Source: an uncultured Candidatus Saccharibacteria bacterium (lineage in GTDB: Bacteria > Patescibacteriota > Minisyncoccia > Minisyncoccales > GWA2-38-27). Taken from it: 62,507 nucleotides of DNA. This document shows, piece by piece, positions 19,367 to 42,605 of the stretch (within the stretch, counting starts at the first letter, position 1; each line of letters starts with the position of its first letter). The notes beneath the pieces were generated by a model. The model saw nothing but the letters and a program-made list of their open reading frames with translations, did no database searches and was not told where the DNA came from. The DNA lies in NCBI GenBank assembly GCA_964447515.1, contig CAYUSS010000005.1, positions 1-62,507 on the forward strand. Direction: 5' to 3'. Position numbers and translations under genes: made by a program.

Positions 19367-19388
19367 CTCCTTGCCTCCTTTATTTTCC

Positions 19389-23002: not shown

Positions 23003-23024
23003 CTAAATTATGTTCAAGGGCGGG

Positions 23025-23047
23025 TGTTCAAGGTCGGGTCTTGAACA
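23025..23047. repeat. hairpin element providing the eno stop (family D)
   Basis: TGTTCAAGGTCGGGTCTTGAACA, identical at 26171-26192; encodes FKTRP* on the minus strand. Confidence 0.85.
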
Positions 23048-24296
23048 TTTCTTGTTCTATTCTTAAAAGCCGATTATACTTAGCTACCCTTTCCCCCCTT
23101 GCCGGCGCTCCTGATTTAATAAAATCAGCTCCGATGCCAACTGCTAAATCCGAAATAAAATCATCACAAGTATCTCCTGAACGATGAGAAACTATGATTT
23201 TCCATTTAAAAGATTTAGCTAATTTTGCTGCCTTAAGGGTCTCAGTAATAGTTCCAATTTGATTTGGTTTTAAAATAAGTCCGGAACAGGCTTTTTTATC
23301 TTGGGCTTGTTTTATTCTTTCAATATTAGTAGTTAAAAGGTCATCTCCGACAATAGTTATTTTCTCTCCCAACTTTTTAGTAATTTCCTGAAACCCTTGC
23401 CAATCTTCTTCTGAAAAGGGATCTTCTAAAAAAATAATTGGATAATTTTTTACAAGGTCTTTATAAAAAGCTAAAAGCCCTTGTTTGGTAAAAACTGCTC
23501 CCTCTAATTGGTATTTTTTATCTTTGTAAAATTGAGTCGCTGCGCAGTCCAAACCAATTTTTATTTTATTTTGATAATTGGCTTTTTTAACTGCCTTAAT
23601 TATTAAATCCAGTGCTTGTTTGGTTTGTTTAATTGGAGGAGCAAATCCCCCTTCATCTCCTACATTGGTTGCCTCTCTCCCTAAAAATTTTCTTAAAATA
23701 TCTTTTAAGATATGATATATTTCTTTCCCTGCTTGTAAATTTTCTGAAAAAGATTTTTGTTCAGGAACAATCATAAATTCCTGAAGAGCCAATTTATTTC
23801 CGGCATGAATTCCTCCTTCAATTATGTTAAAACAGGGAATCGGCAAGCTCCACGAGACCCGGCCTCGTAACGAGGCCGGGTCTCGTAACTCAAAAATATA
23901 TTTCCCCAAAGGTATACATTTGGCAACGGCTCCGGCTCGGCAAGTTGCTATTGAAACGGCTAAAATTGCATTAGCTCCCAAATTTGATTTATCTTTTGTT
24001 CCATCTAATTCAATCATTAATTGGTCAATTTCTTTTTGTTTTGTCGGGTCTTTGCCTTTAAGTTTGGGAGCAATAATTTCGTTAACGTTTTTAATTGCTT
24101 TTGAAACCCCTTTTCCGCAATATCTTTTTCCGCCGTCTCTCAACTCCTTTGCCTCATATTTTCCTTTTGAAGCGCCCGAAGGAACCGAAGCCCTAAAAAT
24201 ACCTAAATTGGTTTCTAATTCGGCTTCAACTGTCGGCTCTCCTCTGGAGTCCAAAATCTCCCTGGCTTTTATTGATTTGATTTTAGAACTTTTCAT
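23028..24296 (-). CDS. eno: enolase carrying an internal palindrome-derived insertion and a repeat-derived C-terminus
   Basis: EILDSRG, VPSGAS, VGDEGGFAP, GDDL, SHRSGDT, ERVAKYNRLLRIE. Confidence 0.97.
   Translation of the reverse strand: MKSSKIKSIKAREILDSRGEPTVEAELETNLGIFRASVPSGASKGKYEAKELRDGGKRYCGKGVSKAIKNVNEIIAPKLKGKDPTKQKEIDQLMIELDGTKDKSNLGANAILAVSIATCRAGAVAKCIPLGKYIFELRDPASLRGRVSWSLPIPCFNIIEGGIHAGNKLALQEFMIVPEQKSFSENLQAGKEIYHILKDILRKFLGREATNVGDEGGFAPPIKQTKQALDLIIKAVKKANYQNKIKIGLDCAATQFYKDKKYQLEGAVFTKQGLLAFYKDLVKNYPIIFLEDPFSEEDWQGFQEITKKLGEKITIVGDDLLTTNIERIKQAQDKKACSGLILKPNQIGTITETLKAAKLAKSFKWKIIVSHRSGDTCDDFISDLAVGIGADFIKSGAPARGERVAKYNRLLRIEQEMFKTRP
23852..23886. repeat. 35-bp palindrome in-frame in enolase
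   Basis: ACGAGACCCGGCCTCG-TAA-CGAGGCCGGGTCTCGT; peptide RDPASLRGRVS. Confidence 0.9.
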
Positions 24297-24324
24297 TCCA
24301 AAATAAGATTAAGTTTATTAATTT

Positions 24325-24852
24325 TTATTGTTTTTCAAACCCACCAGCAACCCAATCAAATTCACTCTGCCAATTCCGGCTCGGGCAACTCCAGCCAGGA
24401 CTGTCGGGATGAGGCCTACCACTACTTTCCATGCCACGAACACCTAAAACGAAAAAAGGACCCTTGGCCGAATCGCAACCGGCATTGCCGGCAGGATATC
24501 TATAATAATTATATCCATAACAACCTGTTCCTGAACCGTCTTTTGGATCAGTAGGAGTTCCCCCTGGAAACAACCCTTCTGTTGCTAAAGCACCAATAAA
24601 AGGATCCCCCCCACATGGTCCTTGATCCCAGCCATCGCAACAGCTATCCCCAGAAATATTAGGATACCTTCCATATTTATCGTGATATATCCGAAGAGCT
24701 GTTAGTATTTGATTCATATCATGTAATCTTACAGCATCTCTTGCCCTTTCTCTTGCTCCCTTTAAACTAACCAAAACAATAGAAGCTAAAAGACCTATAA
24801 TGGCAATGACTACTAAAAGTTCGATTAGGGTGAATGATTTATTATGTTTCAT
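24325..24852 (-). CDS. type IV pilin / GspG-like protein
   Basis: KS|FTLIELLVVIAIIG, ARDAVRLHD, PTDP, Cys-rich tail. Confidence 0.9.
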   Translation of the reverse strand: MKHNKSFTLIELLVVIAIIGLLASIVLVSLKGARERARDAVRLHDMNQILTALRIYHDKYGRYPNISGDSCCDGWDQGPCGGDPFIGALATEGLFPGGTPTDPKDGSGTGCYGYNYYRYPAGNAGCDSAKGPFFVLGVRGMESSGRPHPDSPGWSCPSRNWQSEFDWVAGGFEKQ

Positions 24853-24883
24853 CTTTTTTATGTTTTATGTTTCACAACCTTTT

Positions 24884-24941
24884 AAAGCCTGTTAGTATTT
24901 GATACCAACAGGCCTGTTGGTATCAAATACTAACAGGCTTT
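24884..24941. repeat. perfect 58-bp loopless palindrome
   Basis: AAAGCCTGTTAGTATTTGATACCAACAGG|CCTGTTGGTATCAAATACTAACAGGCTTT. Confidence 0.92.
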
Positions 24942-24955
24942 TTACAGGGTAAAAT

Positions 24956-25972
24956 TTATTTTTGTTTTTGAATATATCCATAAGCGGCTAAGGCAGCTTT
25001 GGCTCCTTCACCGCAGGCAGTGATAATTTGCTTGTATTGACCAATATTTACATCGCCTACCGCAAATAGTCCTGGAGTTTTGGTTTGACAGGTTTCAAAC
25101 TCAACTTTTATTTCGTCTTTTTCATTAAATTCAACCAAACCCTTAACAAATGCGGTTGCCGGCTGGCTTCCAATTTCCACAAAAACACCCTCAATAGATA
25201 AGGTTTTTTCTTCTTTAGTTTTCCGAGATTGATAAACCATTGATTCTACAAACTTTTTGCCTTTAATTTCTTTCAGAGCAGCATTTGTTATTATTTCTGC
25301 TTTTTTAGTTTTCTTTATAATTTCCTGGTTTGTTTCATCAGCGCTAACTCGGGGACCATATTCTAAAATATAAATTTTTTTAACATAATTTGACAAAAAT
25401 ATCGCTGATTCAAAACCGGCGTTTCCTCCTCCAATAACTGCCACTGTTTTGTCAGCAAATAACACTCCGTCACATATGCTGCAATAACTCACGCCCTTTC
25501 CGATAAATTCTTCTTCACCAGGAACCTCTAAGGGCCGAGGGTCGGCTCCTGAAGCTACAATTATTGCTTTTGCCTGAAATTCTTTTTTATTTTTAGTAGA
25601 AACTAAAAAATCATTGTTTGTTTTTTTAACCCCGTTAAATAATTTCGCCTTCGGCGAAATTCCCGCTTTACGGGATTTAACAGGGTAAATTTTTTTTACT
25701 TCATCAATTTTAATTTCAACTTGCCCGCCCAAGTTTTTCTCCGAAAAACTTGGGCGGGCAAACTTTTTCAAATGGTTTTCAAATTTTTGAATAAGTTCTT
25801 GGCCTGAAATTTTTTCAAATCCAGGATAATTTTCAATAGCAACAGCTTTTTTTACTACCTGACCGCCAAAACTTTTGGTGATTAAAAGAGTATTTAATTT
25901 TTGTCTGGCAGCATAAATTCCAGCTGTAATTCCGGCCGGACCACCACCAATAATTATAAGGTCATAAATCAT
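24956..25972 (-). CDS. trxB: thioredoxin-disulfide reductase with two in-frame palindrome insertions
   Basis: IIGGGPAG, GKGVSYCSICD, VIGGGNAG, GLFAVGDV. Confidence 0.93.
   Translation of the reverse strand: MIYDLIIIGGGPAGITAGIYAARQKLNTLLITKSFGGQVVKKAVAIENYPGFEKISGQELIQKFENHLKKFARPSFSEKNLGGQVEIKIDEVKKIYPVKSRKAGISPKAKLFNGVKKTNNDFLVSTKNKKEFQAKAIIVASGADPRPLEVPGEEEFIGKGVSYCSICDGVLFADKTVAVIGGGNAGFESAIFLSNYVKKIYILEYGPRVSADETNQEIIKKTKKAEIITNAALKEIKGKKFVESMVYQSRKTKEEKTLSIEGVFVEIGSQPATAFVKGLVEFNEKDEIKVEFETCQTKTPGLFAVGDVNIGQYKQIITACGEGAKAALAAYGYIQKQK
25629..25689. repeat. family C element (TIR ACCCYGTTARAT...ATYTAACRGGGT) in-frame in trxB
   Basis: Outer stem plus two inner hairpins; near-identical to 30722-30775 in ftsZ; both encode GISPKAKLFN. 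Confidence 0.9.
25721..25761. repeat. family A palindrome in-frame in trxB
   Basis: TTGCCCGCCCAAGTTTTTC-TCC-GAAAAACTTGGGCGGGCAA; peptide ARPSFSEKNLGGQ. Confidence 0.92.
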
Positions 25973-26173
25973 AGAAAATAGTTATCGGAAAATAAGAACC
26001 TTTCGTCGCTTCGCTCCTCAAGAACCTTGATTCGCTAAGGAATAATCATATATTCTTGAATTAGAAAATGGTAATAGAAACTAAAAATTGAAAAATAGTA
26101 AATTCACTAATTTCTAATTTCCATTTTACATAACTAATTTCCAATTTTTTACGGGATGTTCAATGTCGGGTGT

Positions 26174-27049
26174 TCAAGGTCGGGTCTTGAACAAAACTTC
26201 AGGGATTGCCTCAATTAAATCTGTTGCCATTAGTGATTCCCCTAATTTTTCAGCTGCCAATCTTCCGGCCGAGCTATTAATAAAAGCGGCGGCTTGGCCT
26301 GCTTCAAACGGACTAATTCCTCTTGACATTAAAGCCCCGGCAATGCCGGCTAAAGTATCCCCTGTGCCGCCAACCGTCAATAAAGGCGAACCAATCTTTG
26401 AAAGAGCGGTTTCTTGACCGTTAGAAATTATATCTATTTTTCCTTTAAGTAAAATTGTGGTTTTAAGGCGCTCAGCTTGCTCTTGAACTATTTTTATTTT
26501 CTCCTCGTCAGAAAATTTGGATATATCTTTTCCTGTCAAAACAAAAAACTCATAACTATGAGGAGTAATCAAAAAAGGTTTTTGAGATATAATTTTTGGA
26601 TTCTTGCTTAAAGCATGAATTCCATCGGCATCAATTACTATAGGCAGAGAAACCTGCGATAGATATTCTAAAATTGTATCCTGGGTTTCCTCTGATCTTC
26701 CCGTTCCCCCACCAATCACTACAGCTGTTTTTCCTCGGGCAACCGCTTTAGCTGACTCTGTCATTGAAATCAAGATACTCAAGTGTTCTTTATTTAAGCG
26801 AATCCCTTCAAGGGGATAGGCTGCTAAATCAGGAGTAAAAGAAGCAATTATATTGGCTGCTCTCTTCGGGGCAATGATTTTAACCATATCTACTCCTGCT
26901 TTAAAAGCGGCCAAAGCTGAAAAAGCCGGCGAACCGCTGTAAAACTCAGAGCCTCCAATAACTAATAAAAGTCCGTAATCGTATTTCTTGACATCAGCCG
27001 GTCTTTTTTTATAAATGTTTTTTAAAATAGATTTGGTAACTTCTAACAT
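26174..27049 (-). CDS. nnrD: NAD(P)H-hydrate dehydratase (YjeF C-terminal)
   Basis: KYDYG.LLVIGGS..YSG, VIDADG, LITPH..EF, GGTGDTLAG. Start set at MLEVTK. Confidence 0.9.
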   Translation of the reverse strand: MLEVTKSILKNIYKKRPADVKKYDYGLLLVIGGSEFYSGSPAFSALAAFKAGVDMVKIIAPKRAANIIASFTPDLAAYPLEGIRLNKEHLSILISMTESAKAVARGKTAVVIGGGTGRSEETQDTILEYLSQVSLPIVIDADGIHALSKNPKIISQKPFLITPHSYEFFVLTGKDISKFSDEEKIKIVQEQAERLKTTILLKGKIDIISNGQETALSKIGSPLLTVGGTGDTLAGIAGALMSRGISPFEAGQAAAFINSSAGRLAAEKLGESLMATDLIEAIPEVLFKTRP

Positions 27050-27209
27050 AAATTGTGAATAAGCGCGAGGCAACAAGTCTCAAAGCAAACTTCGGAGGCC
27101 TGCCGGCATGGTCTGCCGCCGAAGGCGGCAGCGACAGGTCGAGAAATTAGACCCCAAAATCTCGCTGGGATTTTGAGGGTCGGTGATTTGAGACTTCATT
27201 GCCGAGCGA

Positions 27210-28085
27210 TTACAAGGTTTTTAAAAATTTTCTTAATTCCGGACCTATTTGGGGATGTTTTAATGAAAGATAAAGATGAGATTTTAACCATCCAAGCTTA
27301 TTTCCACATTCAAGCCATTTCCCTTCAAACTCATATCCATAAATTACTTTACCCTCTGTCAGCATTTTATCAAAAACCTCAGCAAGAATGAGCTCTCCTT
27401 TTTTATTAAATTTAGCTTTTTTCAAATAATCAAAGACCTCAGGAGTTAAAATATATTTTCCAACAATAGCCAAATCAGAGGGAGCTTGTTCTAAAGAGGG
27501 TTTTTCTACAATTTTTTTAATTTTATAAAAACGGTTAGCAATTTTTTCCACACCAACCACCCCATAGAAAGGAATTCTCTCTTTGGGTAAACGATAAAGA
27601 GCAATAACCGGTTTCTGACAGGTTCTAAAAACTTTTTTTAATTGCAAAAGGCAAGGAGTCTTTGAATCTACAATATCATCTGTGAATAAACAAGCCACCG
27701 GTTCTTCATTCAAAAGTTTTGCTGTCTGTAAAATAGCATGTCCGTCTCCTAAAGATTTTTTTTGGAAAATATAAGAAAAAGAAAGAGCCTTAAAAAAATC
27801 TTCTGATTTTTTAAGTTCTGCCAAAAGGGTTCCTTTTTTTCTTTCTTTTAAGAGCTTCTCCAATTTAAGAGAAGGTTTTAAATAATCTGAAACTATCTTT
27901 TTATTTTCTGGCTTGAGAACAAAAATTATCTCGCTAATACCCGAATTTTTGGCTTCAGCGATAATATATTGCATCATCGGTAAATCTACTAACGGCCAAA
28001 GCTCTTTTGGTACAATTTTTGATAGAGGCAAAAATCTTGTCCCCAATCCGCCAATAGGAATAATGGCTTTTTTAACTTCGTTCAT
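27210..28085 (-). CDS. galU: UTP-glucose-1-phosphate uridylyltransferase-like
   Basis: KAIIPIGGLGTRFLP, PKELWP.VD.P, LGDGHAI, IVEKP, GKYILTP. Confidence 0.8.
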   Translation of the reverse strand: MNEVKKAIIPIGGLGTRFLPLSKIVPKELWPLVDLPMMQYIIAEAKNSGISEIIFVLKPENKKIVSDYLKPSLKLEKLLKERKKGTLLAELKKSEDFFKALSFSYIFQKKSLGDGHAILQTAKLLNEEPVACLFTDDIVDSKTPCLLQLKKVFRTCQKPVIALYRLPKERIPFYGVVGVEKIANRFYKIKKIVEKPSLEQAPSDLAIVGKYILTPEVFDYLKKAKFNKKGELILAEVFDKMLTEGKVIYGYEFEGKWLECGNKLGWLKSHLYLSLKHPQIGPELRKFLKTL

Positions 28086-28253
28086 ATAAATTTTATTAGA
28101 AATTAGAATTTTCTACTAGTGTAGAAATTGCTTTATTAAATTTAGCCTGTTTTTGGCTGTTCATGGTTTTTGTATTTTCTTTTAGTTTTTTTATTTTGTT
28201 TTTACGAATTTCGTTTATGGTGGACATAGATTTTCCTCTACTTCTATTCTAGC

Positions 28254-28958
28254 TTATTTTATTTTTCTTTTTAAATAATCTTGAGCTTCTTTTTCAAAAT
28301 ATTCTTTTATTTTGTTTGGCTTATAAAATTCTTTTTTGAATATCAAGGGTTTAATCTCATTTAACCTTGCTGCTCCTTCTAAAATTTTACTCACCAATAA
28401 AACTGGGTCTATCTCTACTCCGAATTTCTTCTTGACCCATTTTAAAATTGTAAGAAATTTAATTTTCTTTTTTTTAAAAATACAATAAAGATCAAAAACA
28501 TCTTTTGCTTCGGCTCGTTCAAAAATAGTATGGGTCTTATTGGCTAACATGTCTTCAATTGCATCAATTTTAATATTAAACTCTTTAAGCTTTAATGGTC
28601 TTTTAATCTTGGGAAAAGGATAAAACACGAACTCAATTTTCAAAACTTCTCTATTCTTTTTAAACCAAAATTGGTGACGATTAAATTTTTTTTGTTCTTC
28701 AATTTCTTTAATTTTTAAGCTCTTGGCAATTTTTTTAATCTGACTTAAAAGATAATCATCTGCCAGTAAATCTTTTGATAAAAAATCTAAATCCTGGGAC
28801 TTACGATGGGAAAGATATTGATAAGCAAGGGCAGTTCCACCCGACCAAACAAAATAAGAACCGAGTTTACTCTTCCCAATTTCTTTTAGTGCTTCTTTTT
28901 GAAAAGGGGTTAGAACTTTATCCGGCACCTTTTTATTTTTATTAATAATATTAGTCAT
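28254..28958 (-). CDS. AbiEii/AbiGii-family nucleotidyltransferase toxin
   Basis: SGGTALAYQYLSHRKSQDLDF, ANK, R...KDVFDL. Confidence 0.85.
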   Translation of the reverse strand: MTNIINKNKKVPDKVLTPFQKEALKEIGKSKLGSYFVWSGGTALAYQYLSHRKSQDLDFLSKDLLADDYLLSQIKKIAKSLKIKEIEEQKKFNRHQFWFKKNREVLKIEFVFYPFPKIKRPLKLKEFNIKIDAIEDMLANKTHTIFERAEAKDVFDLYCIFKKKKIKFLTILKWVKKKFGVEIDPVLLVSKILEGAARLNEIKPLIFKKEFYKPNKIKEYFEKEAQDYLKRKIK

Positions 28959-28995
28959 AAACTGTTATAACCCGCATACTAAAAAGGTGCGGGGT

Positions 28996-29208
28996 TTAAC
29001 CATATTTCTTCAAAAAATTTCTAAGAATTTGTTTGAGATAAACATTAATTTTTAATCTGGACAAATACTTCTTTAAGGTTTTTTTATCTAAGACCTCCCA
29101 ATCACCATGTTCAACTTTTCTTTGCAAATACCAAAGCAAAACCCTGGGATTAGATAAATCCAGTTTTTTAACATCGTAATCCCAAATGTAATTTTTGGTA
29201 AGTTTCAT
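28996..29208 (-). CDS. small helical protein, putative antitoxin partner
   Basis: YIWDYD..KLDL motif; immediately upstream of the AbiEii gene. Confidence 0.6.
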   Translation of the reverse strand: MKLTKNYIWDYDVKKLDLSNPRVLLWYLQRKVEHGDWEVLDKKTLKKYLSRLKINVYLKQILRNFLKKYG

Positions 29209-29288
29209 ACTTTTATTTTATCATAATTTTAATCAAAATAAAACACCCTGCCCGCGTGAAACGCGGGTAGGGGATGTTTGAAATCTTA

Positions 29289-29936
29289 TTACTCCAAAAA
29301 GCGAAAAGTGGAAAGCATTTGGTTGGTAATTCTTCCTTGTTCTTGGCTGGGGATATAATCTTCTTGTTCAGATAAATCAAGACTATATGCTTCATGGAGC
29401 GACCACCTCTCAATCAAAAAAGTATTTACTCCTTTTTCTTTAACACAATAATAGAAAATTCCTTCTCCTTCAGCTCCGCTATAATATCTATCCCCTTCTA
29501 TATTTCCAAGATTGAAAGCTTCGGGTTCCTCCCCGTATTTCTGAAAGAAAGACTTTAATTCGTCGCACTGACTTGTATCCTTTTTAAAAGTTATTGAGAT
29601 ATCACCAGCTAAACCTAAATCACTTCCATCTTTTTTGCTGTACATATGGAAGTTTTTTAAGGTGTGTGAGAGAGTAACTTTATTAACATCTAATTGAAAA
29701 ATATCACTTGGATACTTCACTTCAAATCCATATTCTTCGTTTCGATAAATCTCCCAATTAGCGGTTTCGTCTTCTTGGGTAATTTCTCCTTCCGGCGGCT
29801 TAGCTTCCTCTTTTGCTAACCACCCATACTGCCAGACTAAAATTCCTCCAGCTAAGAGAAGACAAATGACAATAATCAGAATTCCTACAGGAGTAGAAAT
29901 TCCCTTATTAAGATTAGTTTGATTTTGATTATTCAT
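29289..29936 (-). CDS. secreted PsbP-like hypothetical protein
   Basis: KGISTPVG signal/TM segment, WEIYRNEEYGFEVKYP, C-terminal QMLSTFRF. Confidence 0.7.
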   Translation of the reverse strand: MNNQNQTNLNKGISTPVGILIIVICLLLAGGILVWQYGWLAKEEAKPPEGEITQEDETANWEIYRNEEYGFEVKYPSDIFQLDVNKVTLSHTLKNFHMYSKKDGSDLGLAGDISITFKKDTSQCDELKSFFQKYGEEPEAFNLGNIEGDRYYSGAEGEGIFYYCVKEKGVNTFLIERWSLHEAYSLDLSEQEDYIPSQEQGRITNQMLSTFRFLE

Positions 29937-30056
29937 AATTGATTTTTATTTCACTAATTATGCCGACCTTTTATAGTGTTTGACTTTCCAAGCCAAACAA
30001 GAAATTGCCTAGGCAAGAAAATTACAACTTTTGTTGTAAAAGTTGAATAATTAAAG

Positions 30057-31871
30057 TTAAAAGCTGGATGATTTTTTGCTGGCTTTGAATTTCTCTCTCC
30101 TGAAAATGGCTGGGGTTTGCCAAATTTTTTCCTTTTCTAATATTTCTTTTTCTTCTTCCTCAACTGCTTTTTTTAGCTGAAGACCTGTTCGTCTAACTTT
30201 TTCGTGCCCCAGCTCTTGGTAATCTAATGGTTTCTCTTTTTCTAATTTACCCCCCACCTTTTCTGCAGAAAAGGTGGGGGGGGTTTTTTCTTCCCCTGGC
30301 TTTTTTAGAATCTTGTTAGGAGTTTGCCCTGTTAGGGGCTTGTCCCCCACTTTCTTAAGTAAAGTGGGGGGTTCGCTTACTTTAGATTTTTTCTCTGCCT
30401 TTGCAACCTTTAACCGGGCTTGTTTTTTCTGACCTCTTAGGGATTTTTCCCCTTTGGGTTTTTTCTTTGGTTTTGGTTTTGGTTTTGTTTTCTTTACCCC
30501 TACGCCAGAACGAGGACTGGCTTTGCCAATTTTCCCGCCAGAGTCGGGTTGTCCTTGTTTGGTCTGGGGGCTTTTTTTAGTTTTACCCCCCACCACTTTT
30601 CCTTGAAAAGTGGTGGGGGGTTTATCTTCCACTACTTTCTCCTTTTGTTGAGAAACAGCACGAGCTTTAGGCTTCTTGGTTCCTAAAATTGGAGACTTCA
30701 CAACCTGAGAAGGTTCTACTATGTTAAATAATTTCGCCTTTGGCGAAATTCCCCCTTTAGGGTATCTAACAGGGTGAACCCTGTTAGATACCCGGCCTTT
30801 CGCAGAATGACTGGGTCTCACTTTAGGGGATTTAACAGGGTAAATCAAAAGCCCCTTTAGACCGCATCCTACAGCCAACAAAGTTATCTTAATTTTATCC
30901 TGAAGTTTTTGATTCTGGTTAATACCGAAAATAATTTTAGCTTTCTTGCTTATTGATTGAGAAATTATTTTTGATATTTGAGAAACCTCTGAAAGTTGGA
31001 GCGCTCTGCCACCGGTTATATTGTATAAAACCCTCTTCGCCCCTTTAGTAGTATAAGGATATAAGGGGCTAGAAATCACTTTTTTAACTGCTTCTTCTTT
31101 GTTGGGTGCTTTAACTTCTATGCTATTCAAATAAGCCAACCTGGCCCTACCGGTTAGGATTGTTTTTAGGTCAGCAAAGTCAATATTAATCAAACCAGGC
31201 AAATAAATCATTTCAATTAATCCTTCTAAATTTCCGGCCAATTTTTGGTTAATAGCAGAAAGAGCATTTTTTAAAGGAGCATTTTTATCAACAATTTGGA
31301 AAATTCTTTCATTAGGAATAACCGAATAGGCATTAAGGTGTGATTTTATTTTTCCAAGAGATTCTCTGGCAATTTCCATCTTTTTTTCTCCCTCAAATTT
31401 AAAGGGCAGAGTAAAAATTCCATAACTAAGACAACTTAAATTTTTAGAAATCTTAGCAAAAACCGGAACAGCACCAGAGCCGGTTCCCCCTCCCAAACAG
31501 GCAACAATAATACAAACATCCTGTTCCTCAAAAAGTTTTTTTATTTTTTCCTTTTCATTTTGGGCAGCCATTTCACCTATTTCTACATTCATCCCGGTGC
31601 CTAAACCCTGAGTTAGGTCTTGACCAAATTGAAATCGTTTCACTTTTTTGGCTACTTTTCTAAGAGCCCGGCTATCAGTATTAGCCGCTACAAAATCTGC
31701 TTTCTTCATTCTGGAGGCAATTTCTGAAACAATTGAACTGCCGCCCCCGCCAACGCCGATTAATCTGATTTTGGTCTTGCGAACCTCCTCTTTTGTTCTA
31801 ACCTTCTTGGTTTTAATAGGTCTTAAAACTTTCTTTTTCCTTTTTTTTATCTTTTGTTTTTTAGTAGTCAT
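30057..31871 (-). CDS. ftsZ: cell division protein FtsZ with very long repeat-built linker
   Basis: IGVGGGG, ANTD, GLGTG, CLGGGTGSGA, PFKFEG, GLINIDFADL, C-terminal QTPAIFRR. Start set at MTTKK. Confidence 0.92.
   Translation of the reverse strand: MTTKKQKIKKRKKKVLRPIKTKKVRTKEEVRKTKIRLIGVGGGGSSIVSEIASRMKKADFVAANTDSRALRKVAKKVKRFQFGQDLTQGLGTGMNVEIGEMAAQNEKEKIKKLFEEQDVCIIVACLGGGTGSGAVPVFAKISKNLSCLSYGIFTLPFKFEGEKKMEIARESLGKIKSHLNAYSVIPNERIFQIVDKNAPLKNALSAINQKLAGNLEGLIEMIYLPGLINIDFADLKTILTGRARLAYLNSIEVKAPNKEEAVKKVISSPLYPYTTKGAKRVLYNITGGRALQLSEVSQISKIISQSISKKAKIIFGINQNQKLQDKIKITLLAVGCGLKGLLIYPVKSPKVRPSHSAKGRVSNRVHPVRYPKGGISPKAKLFNIVEPSQVVKSPILGTKKPKARAVSQQKEKVVEDKPPTTFQGKVVGGKTKKSPQTKQGQPDSGGKIGKASPRSGVGVKKTKPKPKPKKKPKGEKSLRGQKKQARLKVAKAEKKSKVSEPPTLLKKVGDKPLTGQTPNKILKKPGEEKTPPTFSAEKVGGKLEKEKPLDYQELGHEKVRRTGLQLKKAVEEEEKEILEKEKIWQTPAIFRREKFKASKKSSSF
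30250..30844. repeat. cluster of at least five palindromic elements in the ftsZ linker
   Basis: Family B at ~30250-30283, 30344-30370 and 30585-30621; family C at 30722-30775 and 30778-30844. Confidence 0.88.
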
Positions 31872-31975
31872 TATTAGACCTCTCCCTGCGCAATACCAGC
31901 TGGGCATTGTGCAGTGGGTCTTTTATTTTAACTTTTTCTAATTATAAAAACAATAGTCGGTAGATTTAAGGTTCA

Positions 31976-33658
31976 CTATTTAATATCTATATCCACTCCC
32001 CTTTTTTTAAGATAATTAATATAATAAGCAGCCCGGTCAAGATTATCTTGTTCAATGTAATAAGCCGCTAAATTATAACAGGCTTTAATATGCTCAGGAT
32101 TGATTTGGAGAGTTTCCTCCCAAGAATTTTTTGCTTTTTCAAATTCCCCTTTTTTATAATAAAGCAAGCCAAGATTAAAATAAGCATCATCATAAAATGG
32201 ATTAATTTCCAGTTCTTTCTTATACTCAATCTCGGCTTCTTCAAACATATTTTTATTCATATAAATTAATCCTAAATTATTATGAACCATTTCTTCTTGA
32301 GAATTAAGTTCAAGAGATTTTTTATATTCAATTTCCGCCTGGTCTAAACGGCTGTCAAGATAATACATTGCCCCTAAATTCCTATGAGCCAAAGGTGAAT
32401 GAGGAGAATTTTCAGCCGCGTTTTTCCAAAAACTTAATCTGCCTTTGAAATTAAAACAGTGATTAATAGTTAAACCTGCCAGCAAGACCAAAACCAAACC
32501 AGAAATTATTAAAACTTTTCTATTTTTGGGTGGCGGGCGGGTGGCGTCCAAATTCTTGAGCCAGTCAATCTCCGAGGCAATAATAAAAAACCCCAGTATT
32601 GGGAGATATAAGCGGTGCTCTATAAAATCTGCAACAAGTTCTATATTAGGCCTAATAAAAGAAGGCAGCAAAAAAACCAAAAACCAAAAAGCGCCAAACA
32701 AAATATAATTTAGGCGCTTTTGTTTCGAAAAAACCAAAAGCAAAAGCAAAAGCGCTAAACTAACCATACCGTATATAAAAGTAGTATCTTCAATAATAGG
32801 CAAAACCGAAAGATTAAATGGCAAAACAACTTTACCAAACATTTGAAGAGCAGCTGGTAAGTTCTGCCAAACTGACTTTACCATTACAGAAAAAGGCATT
32901 GCCAAAGGGTTTACAAAAGCCCAGCTCCGCATTAAAAACCAAAAAGCAATCACTCCTGCCCAGCCCATTCCAAGTTTTAATTTGTCTTGAGAGAAAATTT
33001 TCTCTTTTTTTATAAGTTGAAGATAAGCCAGGCATAGAAAAACCAAAAACAAAGAAATTTCTTTGGTAAAAAAAGCCAGAGTAAAAAACAAAATATGCCA
33101 GAGATAGTTTTTCCAGTTTTTATGGGGCGGAGGGATGGCGTCGTCTAAAAACTTCAAAAAGAAAATAAAAGCAGCAAGCAAAAACAAGGTCATTAAAGAA
33201 TCATTCCTACCGGGAATCCAAGCCACTGCCTGAGTTAAAACTGGATGAACTACAAAAATTAGACCAAAAAATAAAGCTAATTGCTTTTTATACTTCAGTT
33301 TCAGTAAAACAACAAAAACCAAACAGCTTGCCAAAACATGCAAGATTATATTTGTTAAATGATAAATAAAAGGAGAAGTTCCTGCCCACTGGGCATCTAA
33401 GATTAAAGAAATGGTAAAAATCGGCCGATAATAAGCGTCAGCATAGGAAAGAAAAACATCCTCTTTAAATGTATTAAAGATATTAGAAAGCTCTTTAACA
33501 AAATGAAAGTTATTCAAAATCAGCTCATTGTCGTCCAAATAAGTAAAGCCAAAAAACAAGGTTGGAAGATAGACCAAAAAGCCAATTAAAACAATCCAGA
33601 AATAAGGACGTCGTCCTTCTAAAAAAACTCTTTGAAACCAATTATTTTTTTTGTTCAT
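31976..33658 (-). CDS. GT-C fold + TPR protein (TMTC-like O-mannosyltransferase)
   Basis: YLDD, YYRP, HPVLTQAVAWIPGRND, EHRLYLP, C-terminal TPR repeats. Confidence 0.82.
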   Translation of the reverse strand: MNKKNNWFQRVFLEGRRPYFWIVLIGFLVYLPTLFFGFTYLDDNELILNNFHFVKELSNIFNTFKEDVFLSYADAYYRPIFTISLILDAQWAGTSPFIYHLTNIILHVLASCLVFVVLLKLKYKKQLALFFGLIFVVHPVLTQAVAWIPGRNDSLMTLFLLAAFIFFLKFLDDAIPPPHKNWKNYLWHILFFTLAFFTKEISLFLVFLCLAYLQLIKKEKIFSQDKLKLGMGWAGVIAFWFLMRSWAFVNPLAMPFSVMVKSVWQNLPAALQMFGKVVLPFNLSVLPIIEDTTFIYGMVSLALLLLLLVFSKQKRLNYILFGAFWFLVFLLPSFIRPNIELVADFIEHRLYLPILGFFIIASEIDWLKNLDATRPPPKNRKVLIISGLVLVLLAGLTINHCFNFKGRLSFWKNAAENSPHSPLAHRNLGAMYYLDSRLDQAEIEYKKSLELNSQEEMVHNNLGLIYMNKNMFEEAEIEYKKELEINPFYDDAYFNLGLLYYKKGEFEKAKNSWEETLQINPEHIKACYNLAAYYIEQDNLDRAAYYINYLKKRGVDIDIK

Positions 33659-33694
33659 AAGAGCGTCTAATGTAAGCCCGACAGGACTAAATAT

Positions 33695-35149
33695 TCATTT
33701 TTTTGGTTTTATCCATTTTAGAAAATTAAGTGCGGATAAAAACGATTTCAAAGAATTAACCTCTTTAATAGTTTGAAAAAACATTTTCGGCCGGAAATAA
33801 AATTTGAAATAAGCTTTATCTCTGAGTTTTTTAATTTCTTTGGCAGTCAAATTTTCATTTCTCATTACTGATTTAGTTAAATCAAATTGGGAAAAATTGT
33901 TCATCTTAATCCAATTGTTTTCTTTAGCAATTCTGCCTAATTCGGTTTTAGGGTAAGGTACGACGCAGTAAAATTGAGCATAATTGAGAGAACTCTGACA
34001 AGCCCATTCAATGGTTTTTTTAGCTGTTTTTTTTGTTTCGCCGGGCAGACCAAAAATAAAATGGCCCATTGAATTAATACCAGCTTTTTTAACTAAAGCA
34101 ATGGCTTTTTCAATCTGTTCTAAACTAATATTTTTGTGAGTTAAATCAATAATTTTTTGGTTAAATGATTCAATGCCCAAACTAAGCAAATGGCAACCAG
34201 CTTTTTTCATTTTTTCCAGTAATTGTTTATTCAAAGTATCTACCCGCGAAGCAGTCGCCCAAGTTATTTTTAAATTCCTTTTAATAATTTCATCACAAAT
34301 TTTCTCCCCATAAACCGAATCAATACTAAACGATTCTCCCCAAAAAAGAAAATTTTTGATACGATATTTATTAAGGCATTCTTCTATTTCATTAACAATA
34401 GAATCAACTTCTCGCTTGCGGAATTTTTTTCCGTAATAAAGATTGGCTACGCAAAAACTGCAATTATAGGGACAACCCCTGCCAACACTCAAAAGAGTGA
34501 ACTTTTCTCCATTGGTAGGTAAACAATAAGCCCCGTTATTAAGCAGGTCTCTGGCTGGAAAGGGCAGCTGGTTAATATCATTTTTAGATAAATCCTGAGG
34601 AAGATTAATTTTTATTTCCCCATCTCTGCGATAAACCAAACCGTTTATTTTTTCCAAAGGATTATCATTTTCTAAGGCTTGGCTTAAATTTTTAACCACC
34701 CATTCTGGCTCCCCAACAACAGCAAAGTCTGCTTGATTGAATTCTTTTAAAGACCTTTTTTCCAATAAAGTTGGATAAAGACCGATGATTGCTATTTTGG
34801 CTCGCCCTCCCAAATTTTTGGAGAAAATTTGGGAGGGTGAAGGAAAAGAATTTTTAATTAAACTGACTGTCTCCATATCCCCTTTTATTGAAGGAAAAGC
34901 AGTATTTACTATAATCAGTTCTGGTGAAAATTTTTCAGCCAATTCTAATAAATCTTTATTATTAATTTTCTCGGCAATACAATCGATTAAAAGGATATTA
35001 TACCCGTCCTGTCTTAAAAAAGCGGCTGTATAAGCCAAAGACAAAGGCATCCACAAAGCGGCCCAAGATGATTTCGTCTGCATACATCTCCCCTCTCTGA
35101 TATAATCTTTTTTATTGTAAGCCGGAGGATTAATAATTAATATTTTCAT
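33695..35149 (-). CDS. B12-binding radical SAM protein
   Basis: PLSLAY, GEPE, GRGCPYNCSFC, GIES, FIFGLPGET. Confidence 0.9.
   Translation of the reverse strand: MKILIINPPAYNKKDYIREGRCMQTKSSWAALWMPLSLAYTAAFLRQDGYNILLIDCIAEKINNKDLLELAEKFSPELIIVNTAFPSIKGDMETVSLIKNSFPSPSQIFSKNLGGRAKIAIIGLYPTLLEKRSLKEFNQADFAVVGEPEWVVKNLSQALENDNPLEKINGLVYRRDGEIKINLPQDLSKNDINQLPFPARDLLNNGAYCLPTNGEKFTLLSVGRGCPYNCSFCVANLYYGKKFRKREVDSIVNEIEECLNKYRIKNFLFWGESFSIDSVYGEKICDEIIKRNLKITWATASRVDTLNKQLLEKMKKAGCHLLSLGIESFNQKIIDLTHKNISLEQIEKAIALVKKAGINSMGHFIFGLPGETKKTAKKTIEWACQSSLNYAQFYCVVPYPKTELGRIAKENNWIKMNNFSQFDLTKSVMRNENLTAKEIKKLRDKAYFKFYFRPKMFFQTIKEVNSLKSFLSALNFLKWIKPKK
34803..34839. repeat. family A-type palindrome in-frame in the radical SAM gene
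   Basis: CGCCCTCCCAAATTTT-TGGAG-AAAATTTGGGAGGGTG; peptide PSPSQIFSKNLGGR. Confidence 0.85.
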
Positions 35150-35817
35150 TTAAATTTTTTTTTAAATAAATTATAGAAATTATCAAAGCCGTCTCTAATC
35201 AATTTTAATTTTACCTCGCCTTTTCTTTTTTTATAATTTAAATCCACTTCTTTTGCTTTAAGTTTGGTAAAGGCCTCAATTTTTATCTCCTGGCTTAAAG
35301 ACATACCTCTGCTTGTTAGGCTTAATTTCTTTAGGGCTTCTTTTTTTAAAACCCACATTCCGCTTTGAGAATCTTTTAAATCAAGGTGAAACAAAAAATT
35401 AAGAAAAAAAGTTAAAATTTTATTGCCAAATCTGTTAATTATTTTCATCGCTCCTTTTTCCATAAAACCAAAACGGTTGGCAGTTATAAAATCAAGCTCT
35501 TGCTTCTGGAAAATGTCCAGTAAATAAGGAATTTTTTCCATTGGATAGCTGCAATCAGAATCAGCAGTAACAATAATTTTGCCTCCTGCCTTTCTAAAGC
35601 CGATTCTGTACTGAAGCCCATAGCCAGCTAAAGATTGAACAACTTTAGCCCCTTTTTCCCCGGCTATTTTTCTGGTCTTGTCCCTGCTTCCGCCGTCAAC
35701 TACTAAAACCTCTGTTTTATATCCAAGTTCGTTTAGTCTTTTAAAAGGAATACTGTCAATAGTTTCCCCAATAGAATCTTCCTCGTTTAAACTGGGCATT
35801 AAAATAGTTAAATCCAT
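35146..35817 (-). CDS. GT2 glycosyltransferase (polyprenol-phosphate mannose synthase-like)
   Basis: PSLNEE, VDGGSRD, TADSDCSYP, DSQSGM. Confidence 0.88.
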   Translation of the reverse strand: MDLTILMPSLNEEDSIGETIDSIPFKRLNELGYKTEVLVVDGGSRDKTRKIAGEKGAKVVQSLAGYGLQYRIGFRKAGGKIIVTADSDCSYPMEKIPYLLDIFQKQELDFITANRFGFMEKGAMKIINRFGNKILTFFLNFLFHLDLKDSQSGMWVLKKEALKKLSLTSRGMSLSQEIKIEAFTKLKAKEVDLNYKKRKGEVKLKLIRDGFDNFYNLFKKKFK

Positions 35818-35820
35818 AAT

Positions 35821-38800
35821 TTATTGGGCGTAATTACAAATTTCTCTAAAATCACAAAACTTGCACTGCCAGCCAGGATTTGGAGCAAAATCACTCTTTT
35901 CAATTTTTTCAATCTCTAACAATATTTTTTCTTTTTGTTTTTCTTTTTCCTTTTCTTTACCCAAAAAAGAAGTTATCTTCCCTTCTTTTAAATAATAATA
36001 ACCAAGTTTTGTTGGTTTAAGCCCAAAAATCTCTTCAACGGCAATCTGATAAATCAAAAGCTGTTGTTTATCTTCTGAAGATAATTTCTCTTTAAATCTC
36101 CCGGTTTTATAGTCAATAATTCCCACCCCGGTTTTCAATTTATCAATCCTGTCTATTCTGCCCAATAAAATATGTCCTCCCAGCTTTAATTTAAAAGGCA
36201 GTTCCAGAGCAATTTGCTTATTGATTCTTAAAATCTCCGGCGGCTTTTCTTGAAATTTATTGTAAAAATCTTTAAGTATTTTCCTGCCTAATTTATAATA
36301 TCCCTGCTTTTGATTTTGGGATTCATACCATTCATCAATCCATTTTTGCTTATATATCTTAACTAAATCTTCAAAATTAAAACCCTTAACACCCGACGTT
36401 TTCCTCGGCGCCTCTGGCGCCAATTCCTCAACGTCGGGTGTTGAAAGGTCGGGTTTTGTATCAACAAACAAATTGCTCTGGCTAACCCATTTTTGTTCAA
36501 TAACCAATTTCACAAACTGGTATAAGGTATTGTGTATTGTCTTACCAAAAGAGAAAACCGCCTTGCCCCTAATCGGCACTCTAAGAATATGGGCAAATTT
36601 ATATTGTAAAGGGCATTTTTCAAAAGCGGCTAATTGGGAAAATGAAAAATGAGAAGGCAGGATATTCTTAACGCCCTTAATACTCTTAACATCTTCAACA
36701 CCCGACGTTTCCCTTGGCGCCTCTGGCCCGCCTAAATTTTTCTCTGAAAAACTTAGGCGGGCTGGCGTCAATTCCTCAAGGTTGGGTGTTGTAACATCAA
36801 GTTTTTTACCAAAACCCATTTCAATTAAAAATCTTGATGGTTTCTTCTTTCTCAGACCACCGTAATCATCGGCTGAAGTAAAAAATAATTTCTCCTTTGC
36901 TCGAGTCATTGCCACATAACAAAGCCTTCTCTCCTCTTGTAAATGGACATCGCCTTGAGTAATAAGCTCTTTAACTAATTCCCGGGGAATTTCAATCGGT
37001 TCTTTGCGTTCAGTAGTTGGAAATTTTCTGTCTGTTAAATTAACTAAAAATACATATTTGAATTCCAGACCCTTGGCCGAATGAATAGTCATTATTCTGA
37101 CCATATCCGGCCCCTGTTCAGGGTCAAATTCAAGTTTACCCTGCTGTCCTGATTCTATTTCTAAATTTATTTGTTCTATAAAATTTTTAAGGGTTGGGTC
37201 TATTGCCAATTCCTCAAACTCTTTGACTTTTTTATAAAACTGATTGATTAAATCCAAGTCCTGCTTGCCTCCCATCACTTTTTCTTGAAAAGTGGTGGGG
37301 GGTTTACTTTCTTTATCTATCAAATAATTTAAATAACCGGAATCTTTTAAAAAGGCAACCAAAACCTCAGAAACATTTTTCTGGCGCGACAGCTCAGTGT
37401 GTTTCTGAAGTAAACTTAAAAGAAAATTAATTTTATTATGGGTTTTTTGGGAAAGGCCGTAAATTAAAGGAAGCTCCCGGAGGGTCTGGTAAATTGATTT
37501 TGCTTTCCGCCAACTATATTGAGTAATTTTCATTATTTCTTCTGAAGGAATTTCTAAAAATGGCAAATTCAAAATTCTATAAATTGAAGAACCCTCCTCA
37601 TAATTATCTAAAAGTTTAAAATAAGAAATAATATCTAAAATAACCGGCTTGGTATAAAGTCCCCGAGAGGCTAAAAACTGATAAGGAAAACCGGCTCTCT
37701 CTAATGCCCTAATAAATGAGTTGGCTGATTCATTTGTTCTAACTAAAATAGCAAAATCATTAAAATTTGCTTCTTTGTCTTTTTTCAAAATCTCGCTAAT
37801 TTTATTGAGCACTCCCTGGGTCTCCTCCTCTGAATCTTTAAAATGTGAGCACTCAATAAGACCTTTGTCTTTTTTGTCAGCAATCAATTTTTTATTAACT
37901 TTACTAACATATTCAAGCCGATTGGGATTATTGGCTTTGATAAATTTGTAAGATAAATCCAAGATATTTTGAGCAGAACGATAATTTTTAATCAAAGAAA
38001 TTTCTTTCGCCTTGGGAAAATCTTTCCTGAATTGGATAATGTTATTAAAAGAGGCCCCGCGCCATCTATAGATTGCCTGGTCATCGTCAGCCGAGACCGT
38101 AAGATTATTTTTTGGTACGGCTAATATTTTTGCTAATTCATATTGAGCCCAGTTAGTATCCTGAAACTCGTCAATTAAAATATACTTAAATTTTTCTCTG
38201 TACTTTTCCAAAATAAGGGGTCTTTCTTGGAAAAGTTTCAAGCAGTAATTAATTAAGTCGCCAAAATCCAAAAAATTATTTTCCAGAAGCAAATTCTGAT
38301 AAATATGATATGCCTCAGCCACCTCTTTAATTCTTTCTGTTTCCTGATTTTCCGGCAAATCAGTGAGATTAGTTTTTAGCCCTTCGCTATATTTTAAATA
38401 ATCTTCTGGATAAATTCCCTGGTCTTTACAACGGGAAAAATGAGAAATTAAAGCCTGGACAAATTTAGTTGGTCTGCCCAAGGGTTTGTAATAATCAAGC
38501 TTAAATTTATCTAAATTCTGCCTAATCAAAAGCCAAGCGGCAGTTTGGTCTAATAATTTAAAATCAGGAGACAAGCCAATATCCAAAGCATGCTCTTTTA
38601 AAATTCTTTGACAAAAAGAATGAAAAGTAGAAATCCATAAATCCATATAGCCGTAGGGCAAAAGTATATCTACCCGTTCTTCCATTTCTCCGGCCGCTTT
38701 GTCAGTAAAAGTTACTGCTAAAATTTCCTCCGGTTTAGCTTTGTTGCTTTCAATTAAATAAGCAATGCGTTGGGTAATTACTGTTGTTTTGCCGGTGCCG

Positions 38801-39456: not shown

Positions 39457-39672
39457 CTCTCTTCCTTTTTGTTAATGTGCCAATTTTATTTTACCCCGTT
39501 AGAAATTTAAAATCAATGCAATTCATTTGTAATAAAATAAAAAAACCAAAAAATTTCTAACGGGGTTTGGCTGTCCCTGTTTAACTTACGATGTTAAACA
39601 TTTTAAAAATTGATTGGTTTTAAAAATCAGAGTTGACACCATTTTTTTATTTACCAGAAATTAAAAAAATTT

Positions 39673-40971: not shown

Positions 40972-41234
40972 GCACAAAGCGAATGAAAATAAAAACAGCC
41001 CAGTGATGGGCTTTTGGTACCGAACAATAGCCCCCAGCTCCCCCAACTGAACGCTATCCGAACCTGTCTAAGAAAAATAGAAAAATAGGAAAAATAGGGG
41101 AAAATAGGGGAAAAATAGTGTCAACTCTGATTTTTTTTAAATACTTTACCTAGAATTGATTAACTTTAAAAAATAGAGTCGACTCCATTTCTCCCTCTTT
41201 TAGACCTCATTTTTAGATTTTTTTGTATAAAAAT

Positions 41235-42583: not shown

Positions 42584-42605
42584 CCAGTGAAATATAACCT
42601 TCCGC

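Follow-up and report, generated by a model that had tools for sequence, protein, structure and literature searches.

Short GC-rich palindromes acting as mobile elements are known from organelle genomes, where they are represented by the GC clusters of yeast mitochondria and by double-hairpin elements. For bacteria, the Rickettsia palindromic elements RPE-1 to RPE-10 (RPEs; Ogata et al. 2000, 2002, as summarized in PMC10969869) have been described with lengths of about 100–150 bp, and the account of them in that 2024 review on MITEs (miniature transposable elements with inverted repeats) treats RPEs as exceptional, with no mention of Patescibacteria. Further bacterial MITEs are Correia/NEMIS, ERIC, and the Coxiella elements QMITE1 and QMITE2 (PMC5896051, PMC10969869), and the repetitive extragenic palindromes (REPs) and REPINs represent GTAG- or CGTC-tagged palindromes mobilized by REP-associated tyrosine transposases (RAYTs) (PMC3733652). 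Coding palindromes of the mitochondrial DNA of Nematomorpha have been discussed together with mobile palindromes of organelles (PMC6649704). In this study, short palindromic elements residing in-frame within housekeeping genes of a patescibacterial genome were analyzed on contig CAYUSS010000005.1 of assembly GCA_964447515.1. The stretch analyzed comprises 62,507 nt (62.5 kb of genome covered) and is referred to as the window.

The elements are interpreted as non-autonomous, GC-rich mobile elements composed of nested palindromes, featuring MITE- or REP-like behavior and an RPE-like effect on the encoded proteins, and a probability of about 0.85 is assigned to this interpretation.

Palindromic Elements in Housekeeping Genes

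The window has a G+C content of 36.0%, and that of the elements ranges between 46% and 69%. It harbors a partial 16S rRNA gene and housekeeping genes located nearly exclusively on the minus strand, and, among named sources, its TrxB and enolase proteins were closest to those of metagenome-assembled genomes (MAGs) labeled Parcubacteria, Paceibacterales, and Nealsonbacteria. In total, 13 palindromic copies were identified between 23.8 and 37.3 kb in five intact minus-strand genes encoding, according to Pfam, an enolase, a TrxB-like reductase, FtsZ, a B12-binding radical SAM enzyme, and a UvrD helicase with a PD-(D/E)XK nuclease domain. Copies of one family within the window share 77–95% of their DNA sequence.

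A preceding sequence-only reading of this region had listed several families of such palindromes in unrelated genes. All of them were recovered, at most a few bases away from the positions assigned to them, and all reside in intact minus-strand open reading frames (ORFs). Its assignment of family A to trxB, the radical SAM gene, and uvrD, of family B to ftsZ (three copies) and uvrD, and of family C to trxB and ftsZ (two copies) was reproduced, the third ftsZ copy of family B being divergent, and the recurring inserted peptides (S(F/E)..KNLGG for family A, PPTTFQ.KV.GG for family B, and YPV...GISPKAKLFN for family C) were found as described. A palindrome at position 23852 of the enolase gene is likewise present, but it had been regarded as a lone element, which proved to be wrong, as relatives occur on contig L148, which belongs to the same sample series, and a half-copy resides at position 18985 of the window. 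Beyond the earlier list, families E, F, and G and two intergenic family C copies were found.

The number of palindromes clearly exceeded the chance expectation. Hairpins with stems of 12 bp or more and no fewer than 6 G+C occurred 14 times in the window, whereas 30 dinucleotide-shuffled sequences contained 0.1 on average (~140-fold) and the syntenic 21 kb of a close relative contained two. For the terminal motif of family C, nine matches were obtained versus 1.24 expected, a value reached in none of 100 shuffles; tests with single arms were weak (eight matches versus 2.45 expected for family A, and five versus 1.76 for family B). Since three independent assemblies from other samples, being 99.9% identical to the window, carry the same elements wherever the contigs overlap, the elements are not an assembly artifact.

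Empty Sites in a Close Relative and Nested Insertions

The relative used for comparison (contig CAYMJA010000005.1 of assembly GCA_964391095.1, in the following L004) is syntenic with the window. Protein identities between both amount to 83.6% for UvrD, 81.6% for TrxB, 79.7% for enolase, 87.1% for Carb_kinase, and 68% for FtsZ, with TrxB, UvrD, the NTP-transferase, and Carb_kinase ranging between 82% and 87%. The elements represent insertions, because L004 lacks exactly the element codons, and the multi-family, multi-copy, and frame-keeping insertions claimed in the sequence-only reading were thereby substantiated by empty sites in TrxB, UvrD, and FtsZ. All copies within or at the ends of genes are given in the following for the minus strand.

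In trxB, the family A copy at 25721–25761 possesses 19-bp arms being 100% complementary and encodes the peptide FARPSFSEKNLG(G) (residues 71–83), for which the codon alignment with L004 shows a clean 12-codon gap. The family C copy at 25629–25686 consists of 12-bp terminal inverted repeats (TIRs) around two hairpins, encodes YPVKSRKAGISPKAKLFNGV (residues 96–115), is 89% identical to a copy in ftsZ, and corresponds to a clean gap of 60 bp (20 codons) in the codon alignment. A clean gap of 39 bp (13 codons) was likewise obtained for the family B copy in uvrD (37265–37303, with the palindrome at 37271–37299; peptide KPPTTFQEKVMGG), which is bordered by AAA/AAG on both sides.

FtsZ carries a tandem pair of family C directly after the FtsZ_C domain (30778–30841, 64 bp, and 30718–30775, 58 bp), adding 40 amino acids that correspond to a 40-residue gap in L004. 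Three further palindromes were located in the C-terminal linker, namely a family B copy at 30585–30621 with 17-bp arms being 100% complementary (peptide KPPTTFQGKVVGGK, AAA on both flanks), a divergent B-like palindrome at 30344–30370 with the 10-bp arms CCCCCACTTT/AAAGTGGGGG (peptide EPPTLLKKVGD), and a family B copy at 30250–30281 (peptide TPPTFSAEKVGGK), the linker of the relative being devoid of the latter copy.

Nesting is evident in uvrD, where two family E copies are 80% identical to each other. In copy 1 (36386–36444, peptide TPDVEELAPEAPRKTSGV), an inner GGCGCCAGAGGCGCC palindrome is enclosed by outer arms of 15 bp. Copy 2 (36698–36789, peptide TPNLEELTP[ARLSFSEKNLGGP]EAPRETSGV) exceeds copy 1 by 39 bp, i.e., 13 codons, which are accounted for by a family A unit (36726–36762, 17-nt arms, 94%) at the center of the inner family E palindrome, with CAG/CCAG repeated on either side. 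Copy 1 is, accordingly, an internal empty site for family A. The same composite was also found in RecG (L135, opposite orientation), at locus L188, and in a large protein of L148.

At gene ends, family F was observed to supply protein termini. The hairpin at 23010–23047 (TGTTCAAG-GTCGGGT-CTTGAACA, preceded by a half unit) and the one at 26156–26193, which are 95% identical, provide the C-terminal ..FKTRP together with the stop codon of the enolase gene and of the gene for NAD(P)H-hydrate dehydratase (Carb_kinase), respectively. Both L004 proteins lack the TRP tail, the L004 enolase ending with ..LFK, and family F copies reside at different positions in that genome.

The remaining two coding copies are less clear-cut. 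The family H palindrome in the enolase gene (23852–23886, 17-bp arms being 100% complementary) encodes about LRDPASLRGRVS in the loop between Enolase_N and Enolase_C, which is four residues longer than in L004 and six residues longer than in PDB entry 9x4f; this site is less clean than the others. The radical SAM gene contains a degenerate family A copy in its B12-binding domain (34795–34847, 24-nt arms being 83% complementary, peptide SPSQIFSKNLGGR), and the Pfam match to this domain spans 119 residues for 105 model positions.

In principle, the inserts could represent ordinary lineage-specific loop extensions or ancestral features, their palindromic nature being incidental. Variation is natural in loops and in the linker of FtsZ, and the gap in enolase is not clean. 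However, this explanation, which we regard as scarcely credible, leaves unexplained the 77–95% identical DNA in unrelated genes, the perfect complementarity of arms up to 19–29 bp, the empty sites in a relative of ~82% identity, the occurrence of the same units between genes and in dozens of other protein families, and the hairpin excess described above.

Outside of coding regions, a family C-type element with 16-bp TIRs around an AT-rich interior was located at 39493–39566, and a 58-bp family C copy with a decayed two-hairpin interior at 42374–42431, nine nucleotides upstream of the start codon of an SPFH/Band 7 gene. Family G is represented by a perfect 58-bp palindrome (29-bp arms, 100% complementary) between trxB and a pilin gene (24884–24941), with a related copy at 8894–8920.

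Position of the Inserts in Protein Folds

The sequence-only reading had placed the inserted peptides in surface loops. In the AlphaFold2 model of TrxB (mean pLDDT 79.6), insert A is placed between a helix (residues 57–69) and a strand (84–89), and insert C between two strands (92–97 and 122–126), the latter insert featuring pLDDT values below 50 and no secondary structure. Both inserts are thus positioned between helices or strands of the model, in parts of low confidence. In enolase, the insert separates the N-terminal from the C-terminal Pfam domain, and the FtsZ inserts are located C-terminally of the FtsZ_C domain. As judged from these models and domain boundaries, the insert positions fit the protein folds, in agreement with the predicted location in surface loops and linkers.

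Element Anatomy, Reading Frame, and Decay

Families A and B are single hairpins, and each insertion adds 39 bp (13 codons); like families F and H, they form simple, near-perfect hairpins with loops of 1–3 nt. A family C insertion typically adds 60 bp (20 codons). For family C, genome sequences were searched with a pattern of both ends, yielding at least 120 stretches, and the counts of family C copies given below refer to the matches listed. In this family, two hairpins, which vary freely, are enclosed by the 15-bp terminal inverted repeat TTYACCCYGTTARAT, both ends being present in at least 120 loci. That the ends reach 15 bp was deduced from flank logos, showing T at positions −3 (87%) and −2 (84%) and A at +2 and +3. 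The outer ends of families A and B read TTYRCCC...GGGYRAA, and the outermost bases common to families A, B, and C are TTYACCC...GGGTRAA.

Folding of family C resulted in a 12-bp outer stem abutting two hairpins for 79 out of 130 copies. GC-rich interiors, which are typical of Patescibacteria and Omnitrophota, folded far better than shuffled sequences (median z −5.2, with 51 out of 58 being below −2), although their identity to one another amounted to a median of only 53%. Interiors rich in A+T, as typically found in WOR-3, Cloacimonadota, and Bacteroidota, were mostly unfolded (median z −0.6). The asymmetry of G-T versus A-C mismatches, inspected by eye in a few copies with respect to an RNA or DNA role, gave conflicting signals.

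Two known site types were considered for the family C ends. In integron attC sites, the core boxes are arranged in the order 5'-RYYYAAC ... GTTRRRY-3' at the hairpin base, in the neighborhood of cassettes and an IntI gene. The motifs GTTARAT and ATYTAAC match the R'/R'' cores, no integrase context was seen, and attC was rejected because the boxes occur in reverse order on both strands. The XerD arm of dif was dismissed as well, only 8 nt being shared and the spacing of the arms being wrong.

Coding copies are filtered for added lengths that are multiples of three. The family C core has a length of 3n+1 in all nine copies located deep in ORFs, compared to 51 out of 120 others (Fisher p = 0.0007), which, together with two or eight extra bases, gives a multiple of three; the 3n enrichment to be expected from the sequence-only reading was thus observed. 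In addition, coding family C copies avoid the frame containing TAA or TAG and mostly read ..PVK...FNRV, and family A is read in the phases FTRQ.FSKKNLGG or PPKFF.EKLRR, the third phase being unused. These features, deduced from the reading frames, point to translation of the inserts, and the inserted peptides are presumably made. Alternatively, the elements might never reach the finished protein, being excised from the DNA, processed out of the RNA, or bypassed by the ribosome, as known for some GC-rich elements of mitochondria. Strong hairpins inside the mRNAs would fit this explanation, whereas a 3n length, a stop-free frame, and recurrent phases would be unnecessary if the segment were skipped; it is therefore considered highly improbable.

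Different stages of decay were also encountered. The peptide was kept and the palindrome lost in the trxB and enolase genes of L218 and in ftsZ of L004, and the insert of protein P0016, reading 'FTRQNLG', had lost the hairpin interior.

Target Sites and Re-Used Positions

At sites with an empty-site comparison, microduplications of AA/AAA (family B), CA/CAG/CCAG (family A in E), and TT (family C in trxB) were detected. The A7 runs at the trxB family C copy were considered as a 7-bp target duplication and rejected, since homologues show KKI|KKT natively; therefore, the gain at this site is 60 bp with TT microhomology only. Flanking direct repeats of 6 bp or more accompany 25 out of 123 family C copies (4.6 expected) and 8 out of 71 copies of families A and B (1.4 expected), including a 9-bp repeat TGATTCTTG and an 8-bp repeat AACGCTGA, their lengths and offsets varying between copies. 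A separate observation concerns the AT-rich-interior subfamily of family C in WOR-3/Stahlbacteria, which was repeatedly inserted at a duplicated 8–10-bp target (AATCTGCGT / ACGCAGATT) in loci L064, L066, L069, L087, L109, L112, L121, L123, and L126, with L109 containing three copies within 1.7 kb.

Certain protein positions are re-used. At the family A site of TrxB, 22 out of 120 close homologues, the window protein included, possess an insert (~18%). Four homologues were inspected at the DNA level, two of which harbor a short C-type element (TTTACCCTGTTAAAT-hairpin-ATTTAACAGGG), one the outer stem of family A with a different inner hairpin, and one a decayed insert. Alleles with and without an insert intermingle in a neighbor-joining tree of TrxB, in which sister taxa were found to carry an A-type and a C-type occupant, respectively. 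Orthologues sharing the same peptides while their palindromes are broken had been named as evidence against mobility. Inserts at the same TrxB site indeed exist, but three of the four checked are still palindromes of different families and only the fourth is degenerate; the same-site inserts do not represent one decayed ancestral peptide.

Enolase showed a comparable pattern, with inserts of at least six residues in 33 out of 110 close homologues (~30%) and 12 out of 15 insert positions being internal. The site after ASQFY is occupied by a B-variant palindrome in one lineage and by a short C-type element in another, the B-variant also occupying another position of enolase in a third lineage. 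These hot spots may result from target preference, from transfer of filled alleles, or from in-place conversion of interiors between elements sharing ends. Target preference would fit the ASQFY site, because the native TTTTAC there resembles an element end. Among the enolase homologues, about ten proteins of 660–669 residues were observed in which enolase is fused to a family 2 glycosyltransferase domain (P0146, P0159, P0172, P0173, P0185, P0187, P0190, P0203, P0214, and P0224).

Distribution in Other Genomes

The phenomenon is not confined to the genome represented by the window. It occurs widely among Patescibacteria, and family C is also found beyond them. Families A and B were searched in metagenome sequences using one degenerate pattern covering both, which recruited 88 stretches with 77 unique copies. 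Of these, 18 reside deep in long ORFs, 24 at ORF edges, and 35 between genes. For family C, about 10 out of 129 copies were located deep in ORFs. Pattern scanning retrieved the families from many genomes and metagenomes, and most copies outside the window are intergenic or at gene edges. In the Ca. Nealsonbacteria sequence CP179888.1 (639,534 bp), the 8 kb inspected contained copies of both family A and family C. Pfam-confirmed hosts elsewhere are GatA, KsgA, ribosomal protein L18, PolA, Pol III delta', RecG (where the insert lies between helicase motifs), iPGM, MurB, LepA, and TrmD.

According to their labels, patescibacterial hosts of family C belong to Nealson-, Nomura-, Moran-, Kaiser-, Doudna-, and Saccharibacteria, among others, and further hosts to Omnitrophota, WOR-3, Cloacimonadota, Bacteroidota, Nitrospinota, Stahlbacteria, and others. 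Family A was found, among the listed family C matches, at Patescibacteria-labeled loci only. In 2.9 million viral contigs, no match to the patterns for the family C interior, family B, the family C end, or families A/B was obtained, and carriage by phages was rejected on the basis of these scans. In a metagenome contig (L155, Ga0315298_1016844, positions 1566–1676), three head-to-tail 39-bp family A units, each encoding FTRQNFSKKNLGG, directly precede an apparent prepilin cleavage and transmembrane motif.

A cellular role was considered as well. According to this explanation, the elements would be structured DNA or RNA motifs, such as REP-like mRNA or terminator structures, cruciforms bound by proteins, or uptake or recombination signals. 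They would be spread mainly through homologous recombination and gene conversion, both among cells and among copies, rather than by a transposase of their own, with coding copies as by-products. It would account for the copies between genes and at gene ends, for the family F hairpins residing exactly at gene 3' ends, for hairpin interiors that hold pairing while their sequence varies, for filled TrxB alleles having one flank in common while being spread across the TrxB tree and differing in their interiors between sister taxa, and for the missing transposase in both the window sweep and the fetched loci described below. On the other hand, clean gains of 39 and 60 bp at new sites in unrelated genes require insertion without homology, direct repeats in the flanks are about five times as frequent as expected, and a palindrome reads the same on both strands, so that no RNA strand is preferred. 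Moreover, such motifs would not be expected in enzyme cores, as in RecG between the helicase motifs, or in ribosomal protein L18. No Rfam family matched the elements either, since a search of the window against Rfam 15 returned only rRNA and tRNA at the gathering score and only spurious microRNA-like hairpins at E ≤ 1. A cellular role is thus rated as quite unlikely compared to mobility of the elements.

Proposed Mobilization of the Elements

Families A, B, C, E, F, and H are active or were recently active in this lineage of Patescibacteria. The elements would be mobilized in trans. A common enzyme or a common origin is suggested by the outermost bases shared by families A, B, and C, and the TIRs together with enriched direct repeats favor a DDE-type enzyme, so that a DDE-type transposase recognizing the shared ends is our tentative leading candidate. 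According to the proposed course of events, elements would insert at A/T-rich sites and in the centers of other palindromes; coding copies would persist only if the added length is 3n, the frame is stop-free, and the site is a loop or linker; a surviving element would be translated into a short, mostly polar peptide; and, over time, the palindrome would erode or its interior be lost, with the peptide remaining.

An enzyme of the Y1/HUH type (RAYT, or TnpA of IS200/IS605), moving single-stranded hairpins as known for REP/REPIN and PATE elements, was considered instead of a DDE-type enzyme. The simple, near-perfect hairpins of families A, B, F, and H with loops of 1–3 nt correspond to this, as do the nested hairpins and the insertion of family A in the center of family E, which fit an enzyme acting on extruded hairpins, and coding copies nearly free of target duplications. 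Against such an enzyme stand the missing GTAG or CGTC tag beside the hairpins, the 15-bp TIRs, free interior, and many 7–10-bp direct repeats of family C, which represent a DDE/MITE signature, and the window being devoid of a Y1 gene. Mobilization by a Y1/HUH enzyme therefore appears unlikely.

Several results weigh against the interpretation of the palindromes as mobile, translated elements. As the sequence-only reading had noted, no transposase is encoded in the window; the Pfam sweep of 46 plausible window genes detected neither a DDE nor an HUH transposase, nor a Y1 gene. Likewise, no transposase was present between unpaired family C ends located 0.3–3.5 kb apart in ~1.4 Mb of fetched loci. 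The radical SAM and enolase copies lack a clean empty site. Flanking duplications are inconsistent, amounting to 2–5 bp at coding copies with an empty site and to 7–10 bp at many intergenic copies. Every filled TrxB allele reads GQVD downstream of the insert and empty ones read QK(I/V)D, a common flank that fits the spread of one filled allele by recombination, or replacement of the interior in place, better than repeated independent insertions. The argument for translation draws on frame, length, and phase only, and possible errors in the taxon labels of MAGs could make the two-hairpin type appear more widespread across phyla than it is.

The sole recombinase of the window is a large serine recombinase (59550–61235), an unlikely agent for palindromes of 39 bp. 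An autonomous parent element between the unpaired family C ends was also considered and rejected, as the ORFs located there look, by eye, ComEC-like or like DnaB, glycosyltransferase, and similar genes.

Extending the interpretation further, the elements could belong to a superfamily of modular 'Russian-doll' palindromes with TTYACCC...GGGTRAA ends, moved by one enzyme across Patescibacteria, Omnitrophota, and other uncultivated phyla, which repeatedly directs them to the same A/T-rich sites in protein loops and to the tips of pre-existing palindromes. They would then constitute a major and as yet unrecognized source of lineage-specific insertions of 12–20 residues in conserved proteins of ultra-small bacteria. 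This wider scenario is regarded as rather doubtful.

A considerable part of bacterial diversity is accounted for by Patescibacteria, whose conserved proteins frequently look odd in alignments. If palindromes routinely add loops of 13 or 20 residues, part of this oddity would be explained, and homology modeling, alignments of phylogenetic markers, and gene calling would be affected, all the more as an element can supply a stop codon and a C-terminus. Besides Rickettsia, Patescibacteria would then offer another natural experiment, independent of the first and of much larger size, on selfish DNA creating new protein segments. The common end motif offers a handle for locating the mobilizing enzyme, and the elements could serve as strain markers in metagenomes.

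Other Features of the Window

The partial 16S rRNA gene (1–986, minus strand) covers model positions 1–896 in 986 nt, and the ~90 extra nucleotides may represent an rRNA insertion typical of the candidate phyla radiation. The release-factor ORF at 4457–5197 (plus strand) begins at position 98 of the 194-position PCRF model, its N-terminus being outside of the ORF, probably owing to a prfB-type frameshift or an upstream start; three overlapping palindromes are clustered at its stop codon (5193–5254). Between the PTAC and GAPDH genes, which are only 77 bp apart in L004, the stretch 16158–19710 contains MBOAT and DUF459/GDSL genes and 0.9 kb without a credible ORF, the latter holding a palindrome with 18-bp arms (19004–19039) and a half enolase-type motif at 18985.

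An AbiEii-type nucleotidyltransferase toxin gene (28254–28958, minus strand) is located amid the housekeeping genes and is not part of the syntenic L004 stretch. Three pilin-like genes with an N-terminal methylation motif (10505–11353, 13873–14391, and 24325–24852, minus strand) share a 160-nt repeat of 61–78% identity. Two more long intergenic hairpins outside families A–C were found at 41091–41215 and 42521–42584, the second one having perfect 23-bp arms and lying directly downstream of an MscS gene. Finally, the region 50604–61235 comprises a type IIG-like restriction-modification gene (HSDR_N_2, N6_Mtase, and Eco57I), followed by a plus-strand island with DUF5659, a CHC2 zinc-ribbon (primase-like) gene, several ORFs without family assignment, and the serine recombinase at its end; this island is probably an integrated element.

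Comparison with Known Palindromic Elements

With mobile palindromes of organelles, the elements share the occurrence of short GC-rich hairpins in protein genes of AT-rich, reduced genomes, in-frame survival, and nested or double-hairpin forms. The organellar elements differ in their sequences and in that some of them are bypassed or excised rather than translated, and the palindromes of Nematomorpha are long local inverted repeats, not dispersed families.

Similar to REPs, the elements are GC-rich imperfect palindromes of 20–40 bp occurring in high copy number, often at gene 3' ends, and serving as targets for other elements. REPs are, however, extragenic by definition, carry a GTAG/CGTC tag, and are tied to a RAYT gene, whereas the elements of this study are untagged (ends TTYACCC / GGGTRAA), with no RAYT gene in the window and with many coding copies. 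In tag and location, they therefore do not belong to the REP/RAYT system.

Family C resembles MITEs in having TIRs, a free interior, no coding capacity, many copies, occasional overlap with ORFs, and flanking direct repeats of 7–10 bp, as reported for QMITE2. In contrast to typical MITEs of 100–400 bp, it is much smaller, no parental insertion sequence (IS) was found, and target duplications are not constant. Accordingly, family C corresponds to a MITE except for a known parent IS and a target duplication of fixed length. In families A and B, the entire unit is one hairpin lacking a distinct interior, and the TIR criterion applies to it only formally.

As proposed in the sequence-only reading, RPEs turned out to be the closest precedent (PMC10969869). 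Common to both are several palindromic families in an AT-rich, reduced genome, in-frame copies in unrelated housekeeping genes encoding additional peptides at positions compatible with the protein fold, additional intergenic copies, and no associated transposase. Length and taxon alone set them apart in the strict sense, the units of this study measuring 39 and 60 bp instead of about 100–150 bp and residing in Patescibacteria rather than Rickettsia, and no sequence relation is to be expected. The units described here are, furthermore, modular and nested (hairpins within inverted repeats, and family A within family E), share end motifs between families, with the family C ends being present in several phyla, are found as different families at one protein site in different lineages, and reach a high density, with 13 coding copies in 14 kb. 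In the literature searched, covering few subscription journals, no paper linking RPE-like or MITE elements to Patescibacteria and none in which the end strings of family C appear in a pertinent context was found, a result to be regarded as provisional. With the same reservation, the smaller units of 13 and 20 codons, the modular nesting, the common end motifs, the wide spread, and the re-used protein sites distinguish the elements of this study from the systems known so far.

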